Below are positions 22,986 through 37,655 of a stretch of DNA of 64,000 nt, piece after piece. The position numbers and the translations under genes were made by a program. Within the stretch, counting starts at the first letter, position 1, and every line of letters starts with the position of its first letter. This DNA is from a phage, in sequence record PZ583738.1. The stretch is one strand, 5' to 3'. The notes under the pieces were generated by a model. That model did no database searches. It was not told the DNA's origin and saw nothing but the letters and a program-made list of their open reading frames with translations.

Positions 22986-22986
<1 letters not shown>

Positions 22987-23025
22987 TGTACAAATGAGTG
23001 TAGGTGCAGTATTATGTTCCTACAC
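22986..23025 (+). promoter_or_regulatory. early promoter with stem-loop (PeSL-like cassette)
   Basis: -35 GTGTAC, 18-nt spacer, -10 TATTAT; inverted repeat GTGTAGG..CCTACAC flanks the -10. Confidence 0.5.
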
Positions 23026-23046
23026 CAATGAACAAACGGAGTTAAT

Positions 23047-23379
23047 ATGAACATCAAAACTTACAACGAGTTTTTAGCCGAATCCGCCATCAATGAGACC
23101 AAATCAATTGATGATAGTGAAGGCTCTCTGAAATTTGGTTTAACCAAAAACGCAGATGGTGTTTTCTTTCAGATTGGTAATGAACGTTTTCAAACGTCCA
23201 AATATTCCAAAGCTGCAGTTGAAGCTGTCCTGAAATCTGGTGGCAAGTGGAAAGGCAAAGAAGGTACTAAAGAAATTGGTATCGCTGTTGACGGTGGTAT
23301 GGCTTATTTTAAAATTGGCGATGAACAATTTATTATGTCTGCTCGCGGACGTAAAGAACTGGCAAAACTTTATAAATAA
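23047..23379 (+). CDS. internal-protein-like small protein with capsid-targeting-type N-terminus
   Basis: 110 aa; N-terminus MNIKTYNEFLAES resembles T4 internal protein CTS (MKTYQEF..AEA) ending in L-x-E; internal tandem duplication of a FxIGxExF segment. Confidence 0.5.
   Translation: MNIKTYNEFLAESAINETKSIDDSEGSLKFGLTKNADGVFFQIGNERFQTSKYSKAAVEAVLKSGGKWKGKEGTKEIGIAVDGGMAYFKIGDEQFIMSARGRKELAKLYK
23371..23378 (+). promoter_or_regulatory. T4-type late promoter (TATAAATA)
   Basis: Exact TATAAATA 10 nt upstream of ATG 23388. Confidence 0.4.
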
Positions 23380-23387
23380 GGTTTCTT

Positions 23388-23660
23388 ATGAAAACTTTCA
23401 ATGAATTTTTCAACGAGTCACAATTGAATGAAGAAGTAAAAATTAGTAAAGCAGTCAAATCTATGATTGACAATATCAATCACCTGTATAGCATTGACTT
23501 GACTGACCATATAACAATTGGTAACAAACGCAACTTTTTCGCGTTTGACATTTCAGAACTTGACCAGAACCAAATTAATAACATTGAGCGTTTTGCCAAT
23601 GACAAGGGTCTCCGCCATGAGACAGCTGGTTATAAAAAATATGCAATTTATCTTAAATAA
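23388..23660 (+). CDS. internal-protein-like small protein (CTS-like N-terminus)
   Basis: 90 aa; N-terminus MKTFNEFFNES. Confidence 0.5.
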   Translation: MKTFNEFFNESQLNEEVKISKAVKSMIDNINHLYSIDLTDHITIGNKRNFFAFDISELDQNQINNIERFANDKGLRHETAGYKKYAIYLK

Positions 23661-23668
23661 GGCTTCAA

Positions 23669-23911
23669 ATGAAAACTTATCAAACATTTATAACAGAATC
23701 TTCCCATAGTATGGAAGTTAAACTTGGTCAAGCCCTTGCTGAAGCAGAGCGCCTGTTTGCACGTATCAAAGAACTTGCCGATTCTGTAGATGCATCATCT
23801 TTTAAAGGCGACCAGGGTAAAGTTAAAGCTCTCCTTGCTCTTTGTTCAGACGCGGGTGAAATTGCTAAGAACGGCACCAAGATGAAAAAACGCCTAGAAG
23901 ATTTAAAATAA
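23669..23911 (+). CDS. internal-protein-like small protein (CTS-like N-terminus)
   Basis: 80 aa; N-terminus MKTYQTFITES. Confidence 0.55.
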   Translation: MKTYQTFITESSHSMEVKLGQALAEAERLFARIKELADSVDASSFKGDQGKVKALLALCSDAGEIAKNGTKMKKRLEDLK

Positions 23912-23947
23912 GTGTACATGATGGGATAACTGTAGTATGATTATCCC
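23912..23947 (+). promoter_or_regulatory. early promoter with stem-loop (PeSL-like cassette)
   Basis: -35 GTGTAC, -10 TATGAT 18 nt later, inverted repeat GGGATAA..TTATCCC enclosing the -10. Confidence 0.55.
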
Positions 23948-23966
23948 ATCAACTACTGGAGACCAC

Positions 23967-24221
23967 ATGAAAACTTATCAAGAATTTATTACTGAATCTG
24001 CAAATGCAAAAGTTGAGTTTGCTTATGTTGGTTCGCCGCGTGGCAGTTTTTCCAATGAGGAATTCCGTCGTTCACTGGACAACTTTATGCAGTTAAGTGC
24101 TGAAGTATCGCATGATGGTCGTTATGACATCGTTACTATTAGCGGTTCTGAAGACCTTATCAAAAAGTGGTACAAGCAGAAAGATGTTGAGATGCGTTAC
24201 TATCGTATCCCTAAAAAATAA
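23967..24221 (+). CDS. internal-protein-like small protein (CTS N-terminus)
   Basis: 84 aa from ATG 23967; N-terminus MKTYQEFITES; track start 23937 is a non-ATG extension. Confidence 0.6.
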   Translation: MKTYQEFITESANAKVEFAYVGSPRGSFSNEEFRRSLDNFMQLSAEVSHDGRYDIVTISGSEDLIKKWYKQKDVEMRYYRIPKK

Positions 24222-24256
24222 GTGTACTTTTAAATGGGATAGTGTATAATTATCCC
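24222..24256 (+). promoter_or_regulatory. early promoter with stem-loop (PeSL-like cassette)
   Basis: -35 GTGTAC, -10 TATAAT, inverted repeat GGGATA..TATCCC; conserved leader CATCAACTACTGAGG. Confidence 0.55.
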
Positions 24257-35357: not shown

Positions 35358-35590
35358 GTATTGCGATTTATATTAAATCTGAGTCATGTGATTCTTATCT
35401 GTATTCCTATGATACAGGCACATCAGAAGAGAAAATCAAAGAAGATTTAGAAAGTGATTTGGATATGTTCCGACCGATTTCTGAATACAGAATTCAAACT
35501 TCTGATAGTGAAAGCCCTTCATTGGAAAATAGACTTGAATTTTTAATGAGTGATATTTTTAACCAATCATGGAAACGTGACGATGAGTAA
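35354..35590 (+). CDS. hypothetical acidic small protein
   Basis: 78 aa; ATGA overlap with upstream gene. Confidence 0.45.
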   Translation: MSIAIYIKSESCDSYLYSYDTGTSEEKIKEDLESDLDMFRPISEYRIQTSDSESPSLENRLEFLMSDIFNQSWKRDDE

Positions 35591-36041
35591 GAAAAACAAG
35601 GTGAAAGAATTATCGGCTGGCATTATTTTCATGACTGAAGATAAAGAGTTATTCATGGGTCGTGTGACCGGTTCTCGTAAACCAGGTATGCCAGCACACA
35701 AATGGGACATCCCTAAGGGTCATGTGGAAGCTGGTGAATCCCCAATTGAAGCGGCTATTCGTGAAACCGAAGAAGAAACTGGGTTTACCCAATACGACCC
35801 GGCATTCTTAAAAGACCTCGGTGAGTTCCGTTATTCAGATAACAAAAACCTTCACCTGTTTTTGTATACGGTTCCTGTCGAGCATGAGCAATTCAGACAC
35901 AGTAAATGCTCTGCCTATCATACCTTCCCGGATGGCAGTTCGGTCCCAGAGTTTGATGCATTTGCTCTGATTAAACCGAGCCAATGGCAGTACGTGATGG
36001 GCAAATCGATGTACAAGGTAATGACTCAAATTTTCGGATAA
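35583..36041 (+). CDS. nudE: Nudix hydrolase (NudE-like)
   Basis: 152 aa from ATG 35583; Nudix box GHVEAGESPIEAAIRETEEETGF; directly upstream of lysozyme e as in T4 (e.1). Confidence 0.8.
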   Translation: MSKKNKVKELSAGIIFMTEDKELFMGRVTGSRKPGMPAHKWDIPKGHVEAGESPIEAAIRETEEETGFTQYDPAFLKDLGEFRYSDNKNLHLFLYTVPVEHEQFRHSKCSAYHTFPDGSSVPEFDAFALIKPSQWQYVMGKSMYKVMTQIFG

Positions 36042-36067
36042 TAAATACTCCTATATAAGGGGGTATT

Positions 36068-36562
36068 ATGAATATATTCGAAATGTTACGCATAGATGAA
36101 GGTTGTAAGTTGGATTTGTATAAAGATACTGAAGGCTATTGGACCATTGGTATCGGGCAACTGATAACTAAGAACCCATCAAAAGATGTTGCTCGTGCTG
36201 AGCTCGACAAGCTCATGGGTCGCGTCTGCAATGGTCGCATAACCCAACACGAAGCTGAAACATTGTTTAATCGTTCGGTCGAAAAAGCTAAAGCTGGAAT
36301 CTTGAGACATCCTGTCTTAAAACCTGTTTATGATGTACTGGATGAAGTTCGTCGCTGTGCACTCATTAATATGGTATTCCAGATGGGTGTTGCTGGGGTA
36401 GCTGGTTTTCCTAAGGGTATGCGACTTCTGAAGGCTAAATCATGGGAAGCTGCTGCTAAGGAACTAGCTGACTCAAGATGGTATAAAGTCCAGACTCCGA
36501 ATAGGGCAAAACGAGTTATCGAAACTTTCCGTACTGGAACTTTTGACGCATACAAAAGGTAA
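36068..36562 (+). CDS. e: endolysin (T4 lysozyme, muramidase)
   Basis: 164 aa; [57 protein letters not shown] closely matches T4 lysozyme incl. catalytic E11/D20/T26 positions. Confidence 0.95.
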
Positions 36563-36565
36563 AAT

Positions 36566-36835
36566 ATGAAAACGTATCAAGAATTTTTGGCTGAATCTGT
36601 ATTAAATGAATCAGATGAAAGCCGCATGGCATTTTTAGCTAAGAAAGAAGGCTTTGAGTTTACTTCTATTAAAAAAGTTAATGGAACTTCATTTAAAGTT
36701 GGTGATTGGACCTTTGGTAACAAAGGAAGTGGCCAGTGGCAAATTGTAGATAAATCTGGTAAAGAAGTGGATTATTTGTTTAATCAGAAATTGGGTGATA
36801 TCGCTAAACTTATGGGTCAATACTCTAAGAAATGA
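36566..36835 (+). CDS. internal-protein-like small protein (CTS N-terminus)
   Basis: 89 aa; N-terminus MKTYQEFLAES; adjacent to e as ipIII/ipII are in T4. Confidence 0.6.
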   Translation: MKTYQEFLAESVLNESDESRMAFLAKKEGFEFTSIKKVNGTSFKVGDWTFGNKGSGQWQIVDKSGKEVDYLFNQKLGDIAKLMGQYSKK

Positions 36836-36872
36836 TGTACATCTCCAAATGATAGGGTTATAATGACCCTAT
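36835..36872 (+). promoter_or_regulatory. early promoter with stem-loop (PeSL-like cassette)
   Basis: -35 ATGTAC, 18-nt spacer, -10 TATAAT, inverted repeat ATAGGGT..ACCCTAT around the -10. Confidence 0.5.
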
Positions 36873-36890
36873 CAACTACGGAGAACAAAC

Positions 36891-37307
36891 ATGACACGTA
36901 TTAACTTAACCCTGGTATCTGAACTTGCTGACCAACACCTTATGGCTGAATATCGTGAGCTTCCTCGCGTGTTTGGTGCGGTTCGCAAACATGTACAAAA
37001 TGGTAAAAAGGTTTCTGACTTTAAAATCCCATCATCTTTTCTTTTAGGGACTGGTCATGTCACCTTCTTTTATGATAAACTTTTGTTCCTTAAAAACCGC
37101 CATCAAGAACTTATTGCGGAATGTTTAAAGCGAGGGTTTAACATAAAAGATATTTCTACCCAAGATTTAAATGATATTCCTGATGAATGGAAGAATGATT
37201 ATCAACCATCAATCTGGTCAATTGAAATCAGTCAAGCCAGACTGAATGAGAAAATTTCTCAAAAGCCTACCTGGTACAAATACTATGGGAAAGCAGTGTA
37301 CGCTTAA
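36891..37307 (+). CDS. denV: endonuclease V (pyrimidine dimer DNA glycosylase)
   Basis: 138 aa; [44 protein letters not shown] nearly identical to T4 endonuclease V. Confidence 0.95.
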
Positions 37308-37355
37308 CTAAAAAGGTTGTATACTGATTTTATCAACCAAACAATAGAATATAAA

Positions 37356-37655
37356 ATGTTAACTTATAAAGAATTTATCACAGAAGCTAAAGCTCCTAAA
37401 GCATTTCAAATCGGAGTCCAAGGTAATTTAGACCAACAATATGTTGATGCTATTGTAGCAAGCCTCGGTAAACAGGGCGTGCAAGTGGATTCGGTTGATT
37501 TTACTAAAGGCAATACTTTTAATATTGTTACATCTAAAGGTTCTTTAGCTAAAGTTAAAAAGGCCTTTGGCGTAGCACAAGCATATGAAATTGACCATTC
37601 TGAATTAGAAAATAAAGGTCGCCAGAACACAATTAAAGGTTCTGGTTCTTTCTAA
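37356..37655 (+). CDS. internal-protein-like small protein (CTS-like N-terminus)
   Basis: 99 aa from ATG 37356; N-terminus MLTYKEFITEA; early promoter (-35 GTGTAC 37296, -10 TATACT) upstream. Confidence 0.55.
   Translation: MLTYKEFITEAKAPKAFQIGVQGNLDQQYVDAIVASLGKQGVQVDSVDFTKGNTFNIVTSKGSLAKVKKAFGVAQAYEIDHSELENKGRQNTIKGSGSF

Follow-up and report, generated by a model that had tools for sequence, protein, structure and literature searches.

The accessory region of this phage contains many copies of a short promoter cassette, and we conclude, with a probability of about 75%, that this cassette is a module for immediate-early expression, homologous to T4 early promoters, that would serve recombination as a passive linker rather than as a dedicated mobile element. 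The window analysed (64,000 nucleotides, record PZ583738.1) comes from a Gaprivervirus, a coliphage that is a VR7/SP18-like relative of T4. An nhmmer profile seeded with 17 copies of the repeat recovered 18 in the whole window (E ≤ 3e-6), all on the + strand; the copy at 34030 was newly detected by the profile. The earlier note had counted at least 16, which is true of the window as a whole; 11 copies lie within 22986–37655, and the other seven bear out its mention of further ones to 58128, the last unit ending at 58156.

Anatomy and positions of the cassettes

The repeat unit is 56–96 nt long and was returned by de novo repeat finding as several overlapping families. Its parts follow in the order A/T-rich upstream stretch, −35 element GTGTAC, spacer, TATAAT-like −10 element, one of two conserved leaders, Shine-Dalgarno (SD) sequence and ATG. 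Both leader classes noticed earlier are real (CATCAACTAC.. and CCATACTGAGTTACCAAATAAA...). The spacer, described as 18 nt, has that length in 15 of the 18 copies, while two have 17 nt and one has 19 nt. A+T content is 72% in the 25 nt upstream of the cassettes versus a background of 61%, and the −10 lies 25–66 nt from the ATG. GTGTAC-N18-TATNAT with at most one mismatch occurs 14 times, 13 of them on the + strand, versus 1.35 expected, and none of 100 shuffles reached 14. A generic sigma-70 scan found no enrichment in the region (58 matches versus 56 expected). The cassettes are intergenic, directly 3′ of the upstream stop codon, and are densest in the hyperplastic region.

Copies are given from the first nucleotide of the −35 to the ATG. 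The first (22986–23049) directly follows the 57B stop codon and has GTGTAC, an N18 spacer, TATTAT at 23010, a GTGTAGG/CCTACAC stem round the −10, the SD ACGGAG and an ATG at 23047 that opens an ORF with a capsid-targeting-like N-terminus. At its other side the interval runs beyond denV (36891–37307), which the earlier note had named as the limit of the cluster, and stops where an internal protein gene ends. Class A is represented next at 23912–23969 (GTGTAC, N18, TATGAT; 11-bp stem TGATGGGATAA/TTATCCCATCA; leader CATCAACTACTGGAG; ATG 23967 of an internal protein gene) and 24222–24281 (GTGTAC, N17, TATAAT; stem ATGGGATAG/TTATCCCAT; leader CATCAACTACTGAGG), where the ATG at 24279 opens an internal protein gene that only the window, DK-13 and RZ have. 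A degraded cassette that matched the profile weakly lies 5′ of trna.4 (24505–24561, + strand), with a GGTCTAG/CTAGACC hairpin round TATCAT and without a properly spaced −35. Four class-B copies follow: 27737–27821 (GTGTAC, N18, CATAAT; no strong hairpin; leader CCATACTGAGTTAC..; SD TTGGAGAAATAAAATG; ATG 27819), 28257–28329 (TTTTAC, N17, TATAAT; stem GTGGGATAA/TTATCCCAT; leader CATACTGAGTTACCAAATAAAACACT; ATG 28327), 28625–28699 (ATGTAC, N18, CATAAT; no hairpin; SD GGGATAATAAAATG; ATG 28697) and 29151–29249, which has a G5/C5 hairpin over the −35 (29147–29164). The last has lost its own gene, the start codon reading ATA, and its leader is joined to that of e.6 (ATG 29247).

Further 3′, a class-A-like copy at 32176–32236 (GTGTAC, N18, TATCAT; no hairpin; leader CGTCAACTAATGAGGAAAATATTATG; ATG 32234) is followed by a leader-only repeat that has no promoter (ACTAATGAGGAAAATATTATG, 32395–32417, + strand). 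The copy at 34030–34089 has GTGTAC, N18, CACAAT, a 9-bp stem GTGGGACTA/TGGTCCCAC round the −10, SD ATGAGGAA and ATG 34087. One cassette lies 5′ of denV (36835–36893; ATGTAC, N18, TATAAT; stem TGATAGGGT/ACCCTATCA; leader ATCAACTACGGAGAACAAAC; ATG 36891) and one overlaps its 3′ end (37296–37358; GTGTAC, N18, TATACT; weak stem), with the ATG of an internal head protein gene at 37356. Beyond the region, a class-A copy precedes regB (39451–39510; GTGTAC, N18, TATGAT; a TATCCCATC box that lacks a partner arm; SD AAGGAG) and another lies at 43364–43424 (GTTTAC, N18, TACTAT; leader CATCAACTACTGAGGAG; ATG 43422). The class-B copy at 47063–47137 (GTGTAC, N19, TATAAT; ATG 47135) has a 14-bp stem, TCAGTATGGGGATA/TGTTCCCATACTGA, that includes G·U pairs; a second class-B copy lies at 47653–47721 (ATG 47719). 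The remaining copies are at 50334–50393 (GTTTAC, N18, TATAAT; no strong hairpin; SD ATGAGGAG; ATG 50391), at 53587–53659 (the weakest; GTTTAC, N18, TATAAT; no hairpin), 5′ of a PinA-like Lon-inhibitor gene (ATG 53657), and at 58093–58156 (class A; stem AAAGGGG..CTCCTTT over the −35; TATCCCATCAACCACTGATGAGG; ATG 58154).

Hairpin around the −10 element

The inverted repeat that had been described round the −10 exists, though not in every copy. In 9 of the 18 copies the −10 lies in the loop of a stem of 7 bp or more, two (29151 and 58093) have a stem over the −35 instead, and seven have no hairpin. GGGATA(A)/(T)TATCCC arms, the form that the earlier note called frequent, occur in only three of the nine −10 stems; besides the arms of the first copy there are ATAGGGT/ACCCTAT, GTGGGAC/GTCCCAC and ATGGGGA/TTCCCAT. 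Arm sequences vary by locus with complementarity kept. The mean best stem of the window's 18 copies was 7.06, compared to 5.57 ± 0.31 with permuted partners and 4.73 with shuffled spacers (0 of 2000 in each case). For 97 unique copies from the window and its relatives the value was 7.9 versus 6.05 ± 0.14. There are 53 distinct arm pairs, compensatory ones included, and the fold z-score was below −1.5 in 10 of the 18 copies. From these sequence comparisons we conclude that the hairpin is under selection. None of the −10 hairpins has a U tract or was called as a terminator. G·U pairs, counted on related sequences, showed a weak bias to the sense strand (45 versus 28). The most likely role of the hairpin would be that of an attenuator or a 3′-end/processing signal in read-through RNA, by analogy with the attenuator role of such a stem-loop in one RB49/phi1 reporter experiment (PMC2839356).

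Relation to T4 and genes behind the cassettes

T4 carries homologous cassettes 5′ of trna.4, ipI, denV, regB and e.8, which are orthologous places, and the same profile also finds one 5′ of e.6. The T4 copies share the leader ATCAACTACTGAGGAGAATAAAATG and have hairpins round the −10; the −35 is GTGTAC in the window phage versus GTTTAC in T4. Matches to the class-A unit, at the ipI/trna.4 junction, occur in 321 phage records, Tequatrovirus among them, and a similar unit in Morganella phage MP1 is annotated 'promoter'. As the cassettes occupy orthologous places in T4, we assign them on sequence grounds to the T4-type early promoters, that is, to the PeSL kind already described (Arbiol 2010, Comeau 2014; Repoila 1994 for elements of the IP locus). 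The PeSL identity proposed earlier agrees with the published anatomy: a sigma-70-type early promoter with A/T-rich upstream DNA, an overlapping stem-loop and a 3′ SD and ATG, intergenic and in multiple copies.

Many of the genes bracketed by cassettes are, as judged from their sequences, internal head proteins. Seven ORFs either match PHROG families of internal head or virion proteins or have a capsid-targeting N-terminus. Further identifiable genes are denV, e, nudE, an HNH endonuclease, two tRNAs and an rnaD homologue; the description 'largely unannotatable' was therefore overstated, although it holds for the remaining ORFs. Internal-protein locus 1 (23047–24500, + strand) contains five small ORFs that all begin with M(NI)KT(Y/F)(Q/N)(E/T)F.., the capsid-targeting sequence; their first ~30 nt form a repeat at which crossovers take place. 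Locus 2 (36566–37655, + strand) consists of an ip gene (36566–36835), denV and a second ip gene (37356–37655), and in relatives holds 0–4 other ip genes, including families placed in locus 1 in other phages. Two intrinsic-terminator-like hairpins on the + strand, GCCCC..GGGGC followed by T6 (27071–27098) and AGCCCGC..GCGGGCT followed by T6 (27678–27700, 37 nt upstream of cassette 27737), have the 13-nt repeat GGGCTTTTTTATA in common, and the ORF between them (27122–27676) is an indel.

The endoribonuclease gene regB (39508–39966, + strand) is itself led by a cassette, and its product is likely to be the trans-acting partner of GGAG SD sites in the cassette leaders. Of the 18 cassette-led genes, 11 have GGAG in the SD region, compared to 9 among the 91 other genes (p = 7e-6). 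Four cassette leaders have the exact RegB/S1 consensus GGAGAATAAAA (PMC1702504) ending at the ATG (24549, 28317, 47125 and 47709), the first being that of the degraded cassette (24549–24559). Consensus matches over the whole window were not in excess (12 versus 9.7 expected); what is telling is only their position at start codons.

In the module that we envisage, the stop codon of the upstream gene would lie within the A/T-rich stretch, ahead of the −35, spacer and −10. Transcription would start at about the A of a conserved CCCAT(C/A) box, giving a leader of 25–65 nt with a GGAG- or GAGG-type SD and the ATG. Judging from sequence and T4 homology, unmodified host sigma-70 RNA polymerase would use the cassettes right after infection. 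About half of the copies have a spacer complementary to the bases just 3′ of the −10, which places the −10 in the loop of a 7–14 bp hairpin. This hairpin would be absent from the promoter's own RNA and present only in read-through RNA from upstream, where attenuation or 3′-end/processing may insulate neighbouring modules. RegB would shut the module off later by cutting GGAG(AAUAAAA) at the ribosome-binding site.

Breakpoints and gene gain and loss

Comparison with 13 relatives gave 55 distinct breakpoints, and the region is truly hyperplastic, as had been claimed. Compared to uniform positions, cassettes had a 5-fold excess of breakpoints (p = 3e-7); compared to other non-coding DNA there was no enrichment (13 of 30 versus 42% expected, p = 0.5). 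Between 38 and 64 kb a breakpoint touches only 2 of 7 cassettes, and outside the variable region cassettes are mostly stable; that of regB is stable across all relatives. One breakpoint lies at the upstream edge of 47063 and one 24 nt upstream of 53587. As breakpoints are not enriched over non-coding DNA and the 38–64 kb cassettes are mostly stable, a special role in recombination is unsupported. Several indel crossovers do fall inside cassette leaders. Leader direct repeats flank the indels at 24284/24534, where the degraded cassette is the right-hand partner, at 32236/32397 and at 29211; at 29211–29223, within cassette 29151, relatives have a gene module of 340–776 nt. The indel of ORF 32234–32401 is flanked by a 21-nt direct repeat whose two copies are 32216–32236 and the leader-only repeat. 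At denV, VR20 and VR25 carry another promoter/hairpin allele, joined at ATCAACTAC, and homology resumes at the leader (36867). TH44 has a hybrid leader at its junction, and direct repeats at junctions are 21 nt and ~13 nt. Cassette-only homology islands occur between unrelated genes in relatives, as for cassette 28625 (28644–28702) in six of them. The statement that the region is assembled from cassettes that mediate shuffling goes too far, since only 11 of ~38 gene junctions have a cassette and capsid-targeting codons, the leader-only repeat, terminators and paralogue 3′ ends do the same. Cassettes are one of several kinds of short repeat used in gene gain and loss here.

If the cassettes were dedicated mobile linkers, recombination would be targeted to them, for example by a hairpin-recognising protein or by cruciform cleavage; mini-circles excised between neighbouring cassettes would re-insert at others, and the IP loci would be integron-like capture arrays. 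Tandem cassettes in the same orientation 310–530 nt apart (23912/24222 and 27737/28257/28625/29151), single-gene modules present or absent exactly between them, the same ip families at two loci in different phages, selection on the hairpins, the mini-circles reported for RB49/phi1 (PMC2839356) and the endonuclease VII (gp49) encoded by relatives all speak for this. We nevertheless consider it unlikely. Besides the lack of breakpoint excess over other non-coding DNA and the stability of cassettes beyond the variable region, breakpoints were found at 8 of 11 hairpin-bearing versus 3 of 7 hairpin-less cassettes (p = 0.33), crossovers lie in the leader/SD or in capsid-targeting codons and none in the hairpin, cassette-free repeats (terminators, paralogue ends) behave alike, and no recombinase is evident. 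Slightly less probable again is that the likeness is imposed by RNA polymerase, the ribosome and RegB, with no part in rearrangement, surviving indels having to be intergenic. Equal breakpoints per nucleotide in cassettes and other non-coding DNA, the long vertical stability implied by orthologous T4 places and the five 38–64 kb cassettes without a breakpoint are as expected from such convergence; crossovers within the repeated leader (the 21-nt and ~13-nt repeats, the TH44 hybrid, the joined denV alleles) are not. Conservation over the ~20–25 nt of leader that separate the −10 from the SD also goes beyond known promoter and SD need, and copies 47063 and 47653 are near-identical over 60 nt with unrelated genes behind them.

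Very improbable is tandem duplication of gene-plus-promoter units, by which the repeats would be by-products and the genes paralogous families rather than contents of portable cassettes. The class-B-led genes 27819 and 28697 are indeed paralogues (43% identity over 75 aa), ip genes have their first 10–15 codons in common, and a paralogue family lies in tandem at 31109–32130. However, this family has no cassettes between its members, and most genes behind one leader class are unrelated (28327, 47135 and 47719 versus 27819 in class B; denV, regB and ip genes in class A). We therefore favour an expression module that doubles as a passive linker: as the same 20–60 nt recur in the same orientation 5′ of small genes that are unrelated to each other, crossovers by the T4-type recombination machinery would fall in cassettes as in any other short direct repeat, be it in capsid-targeting codons, leader-only repeats, terminators or paralogue ends, and the gain, loss and exchange of genes would take place in promoter-bounded modules. 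Two ORFs for homing endonucleases are likewise indels, and the indel of the HNH-endonuclease ORF has its right breakpoint at the upstream edge of cassette 34030.

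Identification of repeated cassettes in the early region

The 14.7-kb interval from 22986 to 37655 was compared with DK-13, TH44, VR20, VR7, SP18 and other Gaprivervirus genomes, and only piecewise matches of 92–96% identity were obtained. Gene order in the annotated relatives runs gp2, gp3, gp1, 57A, 57B, ip (internal-protein) genes, trna.4/.3 and tRNAs, followed by the e.x genes, nudE, e, denV (36891–37307 in the window), ip genes, vs.8, regB, tk, nrdC.x, 49 and 55.x; all of these genes are on the + strand from ~18 kb on. On the basis of this gene order, the interval is the Gaprivervirus counterpart of the T4 57B–denV early region.

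An earlier note had described this interval as assembled from repeated early-promoter/stem-loop cassettes placed before small ORFs. The repeated unit is real, as it emerged from de novo repeat finding as several overlapping families. A cassette profile seeded with 17 hand-picked copies was then searched over the window with nhmmer. This search returned 18 cassettes at E values of 3e-6 or better, every one on the + strand, including a non-seed copy at 34030 (cassettes are named by the start of the −35 box). Eleven of them fall within the 14.7-kb interval and seven in the following 26 kb (+ strand; 39451, 43364, 47063, 47653, 50334, 53587 and 58093), so the predicted higher density in the hyperplastic part was confirmed; the profile search found no cassettes in the first 22.9 kb of the window. 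A degraded cassette at 24505–24561 contains the hairpin and leader without a −35 box, and a leader-only repeat is present at 32395–32417. A seed-independent search for the pattern GTGTAC-N18-TATNAT, allowing one mismatch, gave 14 occurrences compared with 1.35 expected, a count reached by 0 of 100 shuffled sequences, which rules out a chance origin of the repeats. As a generic sigma-70 scan with TTGACA/TATAAT gave no enrichment (58 matches compared with 56 expected), the signal consists of phage-specific hexamers. We also considered a structured RNA gene. Rfam at the gathering threshold identified two tRNAs only, with no match at the cassettes; this absence, together with the fact that each unit extends across a promoter and a start codon, led us to reject this possibility.

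All 18 copies contained GTGTAC-like and TATAAT-like boxes 17–19 nt apart, with a spacer of 18 nt in 15 of them, which at the sequence level corresponds to the promoter component of a PeSL (promoter-early stem-loop). The 25 nt upstream of the cassettes were 72% A+T compared with a background of 61%, and the stop codon of the upstream gene adjoined or slightly preceded the −35 box (e.g. TAGTGTAC and TAAGTGTAC at 22984, 23909 and 24219). Between the −10 box and one of two leaders was a conserved element reading (T)TATCCCAT(C/A) or G(A/T)TTCCCAT. The distance from the −10 box to the ATG was 25–31 nt for the class A leader, ATCAACTACTGAGG, and 36–66 nt for the class B leader, ATACTGAGTTACCAAATAAA..GGAGAATAAAATG. 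Thus, in 18/18 copies an SD sequence and ATG were found 25–66 nt past the −10 box, the intergenic position of a PeSL. With its promoter boxes, stem-loop, intergenic position and multiple copies, the predicted anatomy of the unit is that of a PeSL, as the earlier note had proposed.

Stem-loops overlapping the −10 box

The −10 box had also been said to be flanked by an inverted repeat. This feature was present in half of the copies: in 9 of 18 the −10 box lies in the loop, with the spacer paired to bases after the −10 box, in two the stem covers the −35 box instead, and seven are stemless. Hence 11 of the 18 possess the stem-loop of a PeSL, and the seven stemless copies resemble published ‘degraded’ PeSLs. 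Fold z-scores were below −1.5 for 10/18 cassettes. The arms were locus-specific but complementary, as in GGGATAA/TTATCCC, GTGTAGG/CCTACAC, ATAGGGT/ACCCTAT, GTGGGAC/GTCCCAC and TCAGTATGGGGATA/TGTTCCCATACTGA.

As the stems occur in differing registers among copies, partner-permutation and spacer-shuffle tests replaced column-wise covariation. The mean best stem of the 18 copies in the window was 7.06, compared with 5.57 ± 0.31 when the downstream partners were permuted among copies and 4.73 ± 0.23 with shuffled spacers (0/2000 in each case); each copy thus pairs specifically with its own partner. When 18 loci of relatives were added to the window, giving 97 unique copies, the mean best stem was 7.9 compared with 6.05 ± 0.14, a contrast that is inflated because these sequences are related. 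There were 53 distinct arm pairs among the copies, some of which differ by compensatory changes, as in ATGGAGTCA/TGATTCCAT compared with ATGGGGATA/TGTTCCCAT.

No U tract followed the −10 hairpins and the terminator scan called none of them; its sole call between genes on the + strand was 27678–27700. G·U pairs lengthened the stems of 45/97 copies on the sense strand but 28/97 on the antisense strand, which is a weak hint that the structure is important at the level of read-through RNA, not of DNA. The seven hairpin-less copies retain the TATCCCATC box, and hence this box must have a further role.

Homology with T4 early promoters

The T4 RefSeq record does not contain promoter features, and the T4 sequence was therefore scanned with the profile derived from the window. 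Matches were obtained upstream of trna.4 (E=8e-11) and regB (4e-9), with further matches at e.8, ipI, the rI.-1/mobD.5 junction, denV and e.6. The T4 copies have the leader and the −10 hairpins in common with the cassettes of the window. For example, the copy upstream of T4 trna.4, GTTTACATAGGGTTTTAGCTGTGATACTATTACCCTATCAACTACTGAGGAGAATAAAATG, contains a class A leader and the ATAGGGT/ACCCTAT hairpin found at denV in the window. T4 early promoters are very strong and consist of UP, −35, TGn and −10 elements, with further conserved positions outside the −35 and −10 boxes (PMC2988021); the consensus of T4/PST PeSLs is TTTACW-N17-TAYWAT (PMC4122927). From the T4 homology and these published features we conclude that the cassettes are predicted T4-type early promoters. 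The accessible literature yielded no description of promoters of VR7-like phages and no usable T4 start-site mapping.

BLAST searches with the class A unit gave matches in 321 phage records, among them Tequatrovirus genomes, in which the ipI/trna.4 junction was matched. Essentially, it was in Gaprivervirus alone that the class B unit occurred in multiple copies (48 records, 6–10 places per genome); phages of Morganella and Providencia had single weaker copies, one of them annotated as a MEME-derived promoter.

RegB-type sites in the leaders

The target of RegB/S1 is GGAGRAYARAA, i.e. GGAG followed by an A-rich stretch (PMC1702504). GGAG was present in the SD region of 11/18 cassette-led genes compared with 9/91 other + strand genes (Fisher p=7e-6). 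The exact consensus, GGAGAATAAAA, is located at 24549, 28317, 47125 and 47709, in three class B leaders and the degraded trna.4 cassette, and ends at the ATG in each. Such sites are defined as single-stranded, within the translation initiation region of early mRNAs, in a phage that has regB (39508–39966 in the window), and the leader sequences agree with this definition. Over the whole window, the 11-mer with one mismatch allowed was not enriched. Given the GGAG enrichment, the exact consensus and the presence of regB, we infer most simply that part of the ‘conserved leader’ would be a built-in shut-off site. The regB gene is itself cassette-led (39451–39966), and since the SD sequence of its own cassette is AAGGAG, it carries the kind of site that RegB cuts.

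Genes behind the cassettes

The capsid-targeting N-terminus MKTYQEFI.. fits the ORFs starting at 23047, 23388, 23669, 23967, 24279, 36566 and 37356, and six of these seven matched PHROG internal head or virion protein families. We conclude that the seven ORFs with the MKTYQEFI..E N-terminus, located in IP locus 1 (23047–24500) and IP locus 2 (36566–37655), are predicted T-even internal (head) proteins. Internal proteins are a diverse group whose only common part is the targeting sequence; they enter the host by injection together with the DNA, and some of them inhibit host restriction systems (PMC3012670). Because of this injection and inhibition, the cassette-bounded modules probably determine host range and counter host defences. 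Cassettes also precede denV, regB, a gene for a pin-like Lon inhibitor and ORFs of unknown function. The same leader class precedes mostly unrelated genes, 27819 and 28697 being the sole paralogues.

A 127-aa ORF at 26649–27032, outside both IP loci and lacking a cassette, has an N-terminus (MLTYAEFLNRNTITE..) that resembles the internal-protein capsid-targeting sequence. It had no PHROG or Pfam match and is absent from several relatives; it is possibly an unrecognised internal protein.

Gene content and breakpoints among relatives

Gene-content comparison with relatives had been suggested as a check, and the window from 20 to 41 kb was aligned to 13 relatives, with matches chained per record. 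The resulting module map consisted of the presence or absence of single genes between cassettes. Two ip families (the 23669 family and f47) were found in IP locus 1 of some phages and IP locus 2 of others. Homology islands confined to the cassette between unrelated genes were present at 24208–24284, 28644–28702 and 32135–32237, and fit the ‘linker’ picture.

Several junctions could be read at nucleotide level, at least four of the crossovers lying inside leaders. In TH44, which does not have the ip gene 24279, cassette 24222 runs into the trna.4 leader, with TGAGG as the point of fusion, creating the hybrid CATCAACTACTGAGG|AGAATAAAATG. The ORF at 32234–32401 is missing in DK-13 precisely between 21-nt direct repeats, ACTAATGAGGAAAATATTATG. 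The gene behind the 29151 cassette was lost in the window between two TGGA(G/T)AATAAAA leaders, with ATA where ATG was; at 29212–29247 the leader ends in AAAATA rather than AAAATG and continues into that of e.6, so that the combined leader, at 66 nt, is unusually long. At this position the relatives have a module of 340–776 nt followed by a further hairpin, GGGAACAT..ATGTTCCC. Upstream of denV, VR20 and VR25 have another −35/hairpin/−10 allele and another ip gene, and homology resumes from ATCAACTAC.

Equally clear crossovers occurred outside the cassettes, in that other repeats serve as well. These were in the capsid-targeting codons of ip genes (23682/23666 and 37389/37361), between two terminators that have GGGCTTTTTTATA in common (27101/27690), and at the 3' ends of tandem paralogues (31912). 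At 31109–32130 there are four tandem small ORFs, three of them in phrog_899, with repeated 3' ends (GGGTGTCCTCCTCTT..TGCTAAGGAAT) and no cassettes between them; members of this family were gained or lost in relatives via crossover between 3' ends. Two further indels are homing-endonuclease ORFs. The 224-aa ORF at 20262–20936 (PHROG homing endonuclease) is a 658-nt insertion between gp2 and gp3, of which TH55 is the sole carrier among the 13 relatives; VR7 has a different, MobB-like endonuclease gene beside gp3. The HNH endonuclease ORF at 33377–34027, which overlaps the stop codon of the preceding gene, is shared by the window with VR7 and VR26 alone, and its right breakpoint is the upstream edge of the 34030 cassette.

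On the question of whether the region is HYPERPLASTIC, 55 distinct breakpoint positions were found in 22.3–38.4 kb, the test counting positions in 13 genomes rather than events. Cassette spans make up 5.7% of this DNA yet contained 15/55 breakpoints (p=3e-7 compared with uniform positions). Within the non-coding DNA, of which cassettes form 42%, there was no excess, as they held 13 of the 30 non-coding breakpoints (p=0.5). From 38 to 64 kb, 3/46 breakpoints among five relatives were in cassettes, touching 2/7 of them (p=0.11), and breakpoints in hairpin-bearing and hairpin-less cassettes (8/11 compared with 3/7) did not differ significantly. On these counts, cassettes are tied to breakpoints no more than intergenic DNA generally. 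The proposal of the earlier note that the cassettes mediate gene shuffling is thus partly supported, in that individual crossovers lie inside leaders, with no preference shown over other non-coding DNA.

Proposed role of the cassettes and comparison with known systems

The cassettes are, as judged from sequence, PeSLs in structure and distribution, and they would function as immediate-early expression modules of the T4 type. Their part in shuffling would be passive, as one of several classes of short same-orientation repeats usable by the T4 recombination system. Because the cassettes would provide a promoter, an insulator and a ribosome-binding site, recombinants using them would be viable. 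The present data do not call for a dedicated mechanism (mini-circles or cleavage directed to the hairpins, for instance), though they are compatible with one. One such mechanism would have the −10 hairpins, as DNA cruciforms or via a protein, start recombination, with the IP loci serving as integron-like capture sites that swap injected anti-defence genes between co-infecting phages, the swapped units being promoter-bounded modules or mini-circles; we consider this combination quite improbable.

The PeSLs of RB49/phi1 have the same order of parts (stop codon in A/T-rich DNA, −35 and −10 boxes, stem-loop, SD sequence and ATG), with the stem-loop usually between the boxes or over the −10 box; they are likewise densest before small ORFs in hyperplastic regions. 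The RB49/phi1 copies number in the dozens and adjoin indels between close relatives (PMC2839356). However, RB49/phi1 elements have near-perfect TTGACA/TATAAT boxes and polyG/polyC stems, whereas those of the window have a GTGTAC −35 box, mixed-sequence stems and two long conserved leaders. It is only for RB49/phi1 that experiments demonstrated strong promoter activity in vivo and mini-circles between neighbouring elements; terminator activity was demonstrated there as well (PMC2839356). The likeness to T4/PST PeSLs and T4 early promoters extends to direct homology, with GTGTAC in place of the GTTTAC −35 box of T4. The PST/T4 stem was described just upstream of the promoter (PMC4122927), whereas in the window and in the T4 copies found here it is around the −10 box.

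The T-even IP loci of Repoila et al. (1994), as they are summarised in PMC2839356 and PMC4122927, are the same two loci, 57B–trna.4 and e–denV–vs.8; early-promoter/stem-loop elements separate the ip genes there, and shuffling is limited to these loci. Their ip genes are likewise variable, the capsid-targeting N-terminus being their only common part (PMC3012670), although the ip gene set and the cassette alleles of Gaprivervirus differ from those of T2/T4/T6. The cassettes correspond to the ‘PeSL-like’ elements already noted at the two T-even IP loci (PMC2839356, discussion). Arbiol et al. (2010) compared PeSLs with integron cassettes and lambdoid morons. The resemblance is that one gene at a time is gained or lost as a unit at a defined intergenic site, where it either brings its own expression signals or meets them. 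Unlike integrons, the window lacks an integrase and attC-type site-specific recombination, and the crossovers resemble short-homology recombination; unlike morons, the modules share the orientation of the neighbouring genes.

Since the kind of element is already known, the additions are of modest weight: the description for Gaprivervirus, the class B leader, the content of RegB sites and a quantitative test of breakpoints. The published PeSL hypothesis is tempered by the 13-relative comparison, as crossover use per nucleotide was not above that of other intergenic DNA, which likewise offers short repeats as crossover points in this region. The anatomy of promoter, hairpin, leader and RegB-type ribosome-binding site makes early transcription units annotatable in VR7/SP18-like phages, several of which are in use or proposed for biocontrol, and helps to predict places where genes could be inserted or removed while sparing the neighbours.

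Other features of the window

A 2.4-kb segment at 54881–57277 (nrdD/nrdG in annotated relatives) is missing in VR7 and present in the window, DK-13, SP18, VR20 and RZ. Between the last ip gene and vs.8, ~160 nt of G+C-rich, non-coding DNA (37656–37818) without a folding signal (z=0.02) is conserved in DK-13, RZ, TH55, VR26 and TH41; other relatives have 1–3 additional ip genes there. A homologue of rnaD, a T4 small stable RNA (species 2 RNA) without an Rfam family, was found at 26408–26527, on the downstream side of the genes for tRNA-Met and tRNA-Arg (87.6% identity over 121 nt; z=−3.3 for the fold). The 90 nt that follow it (26528–26620) are also G+C-rich with a moderate fold (z=−1.8), and its 3' end is repeated, over 24 nt, at 63513–63536.
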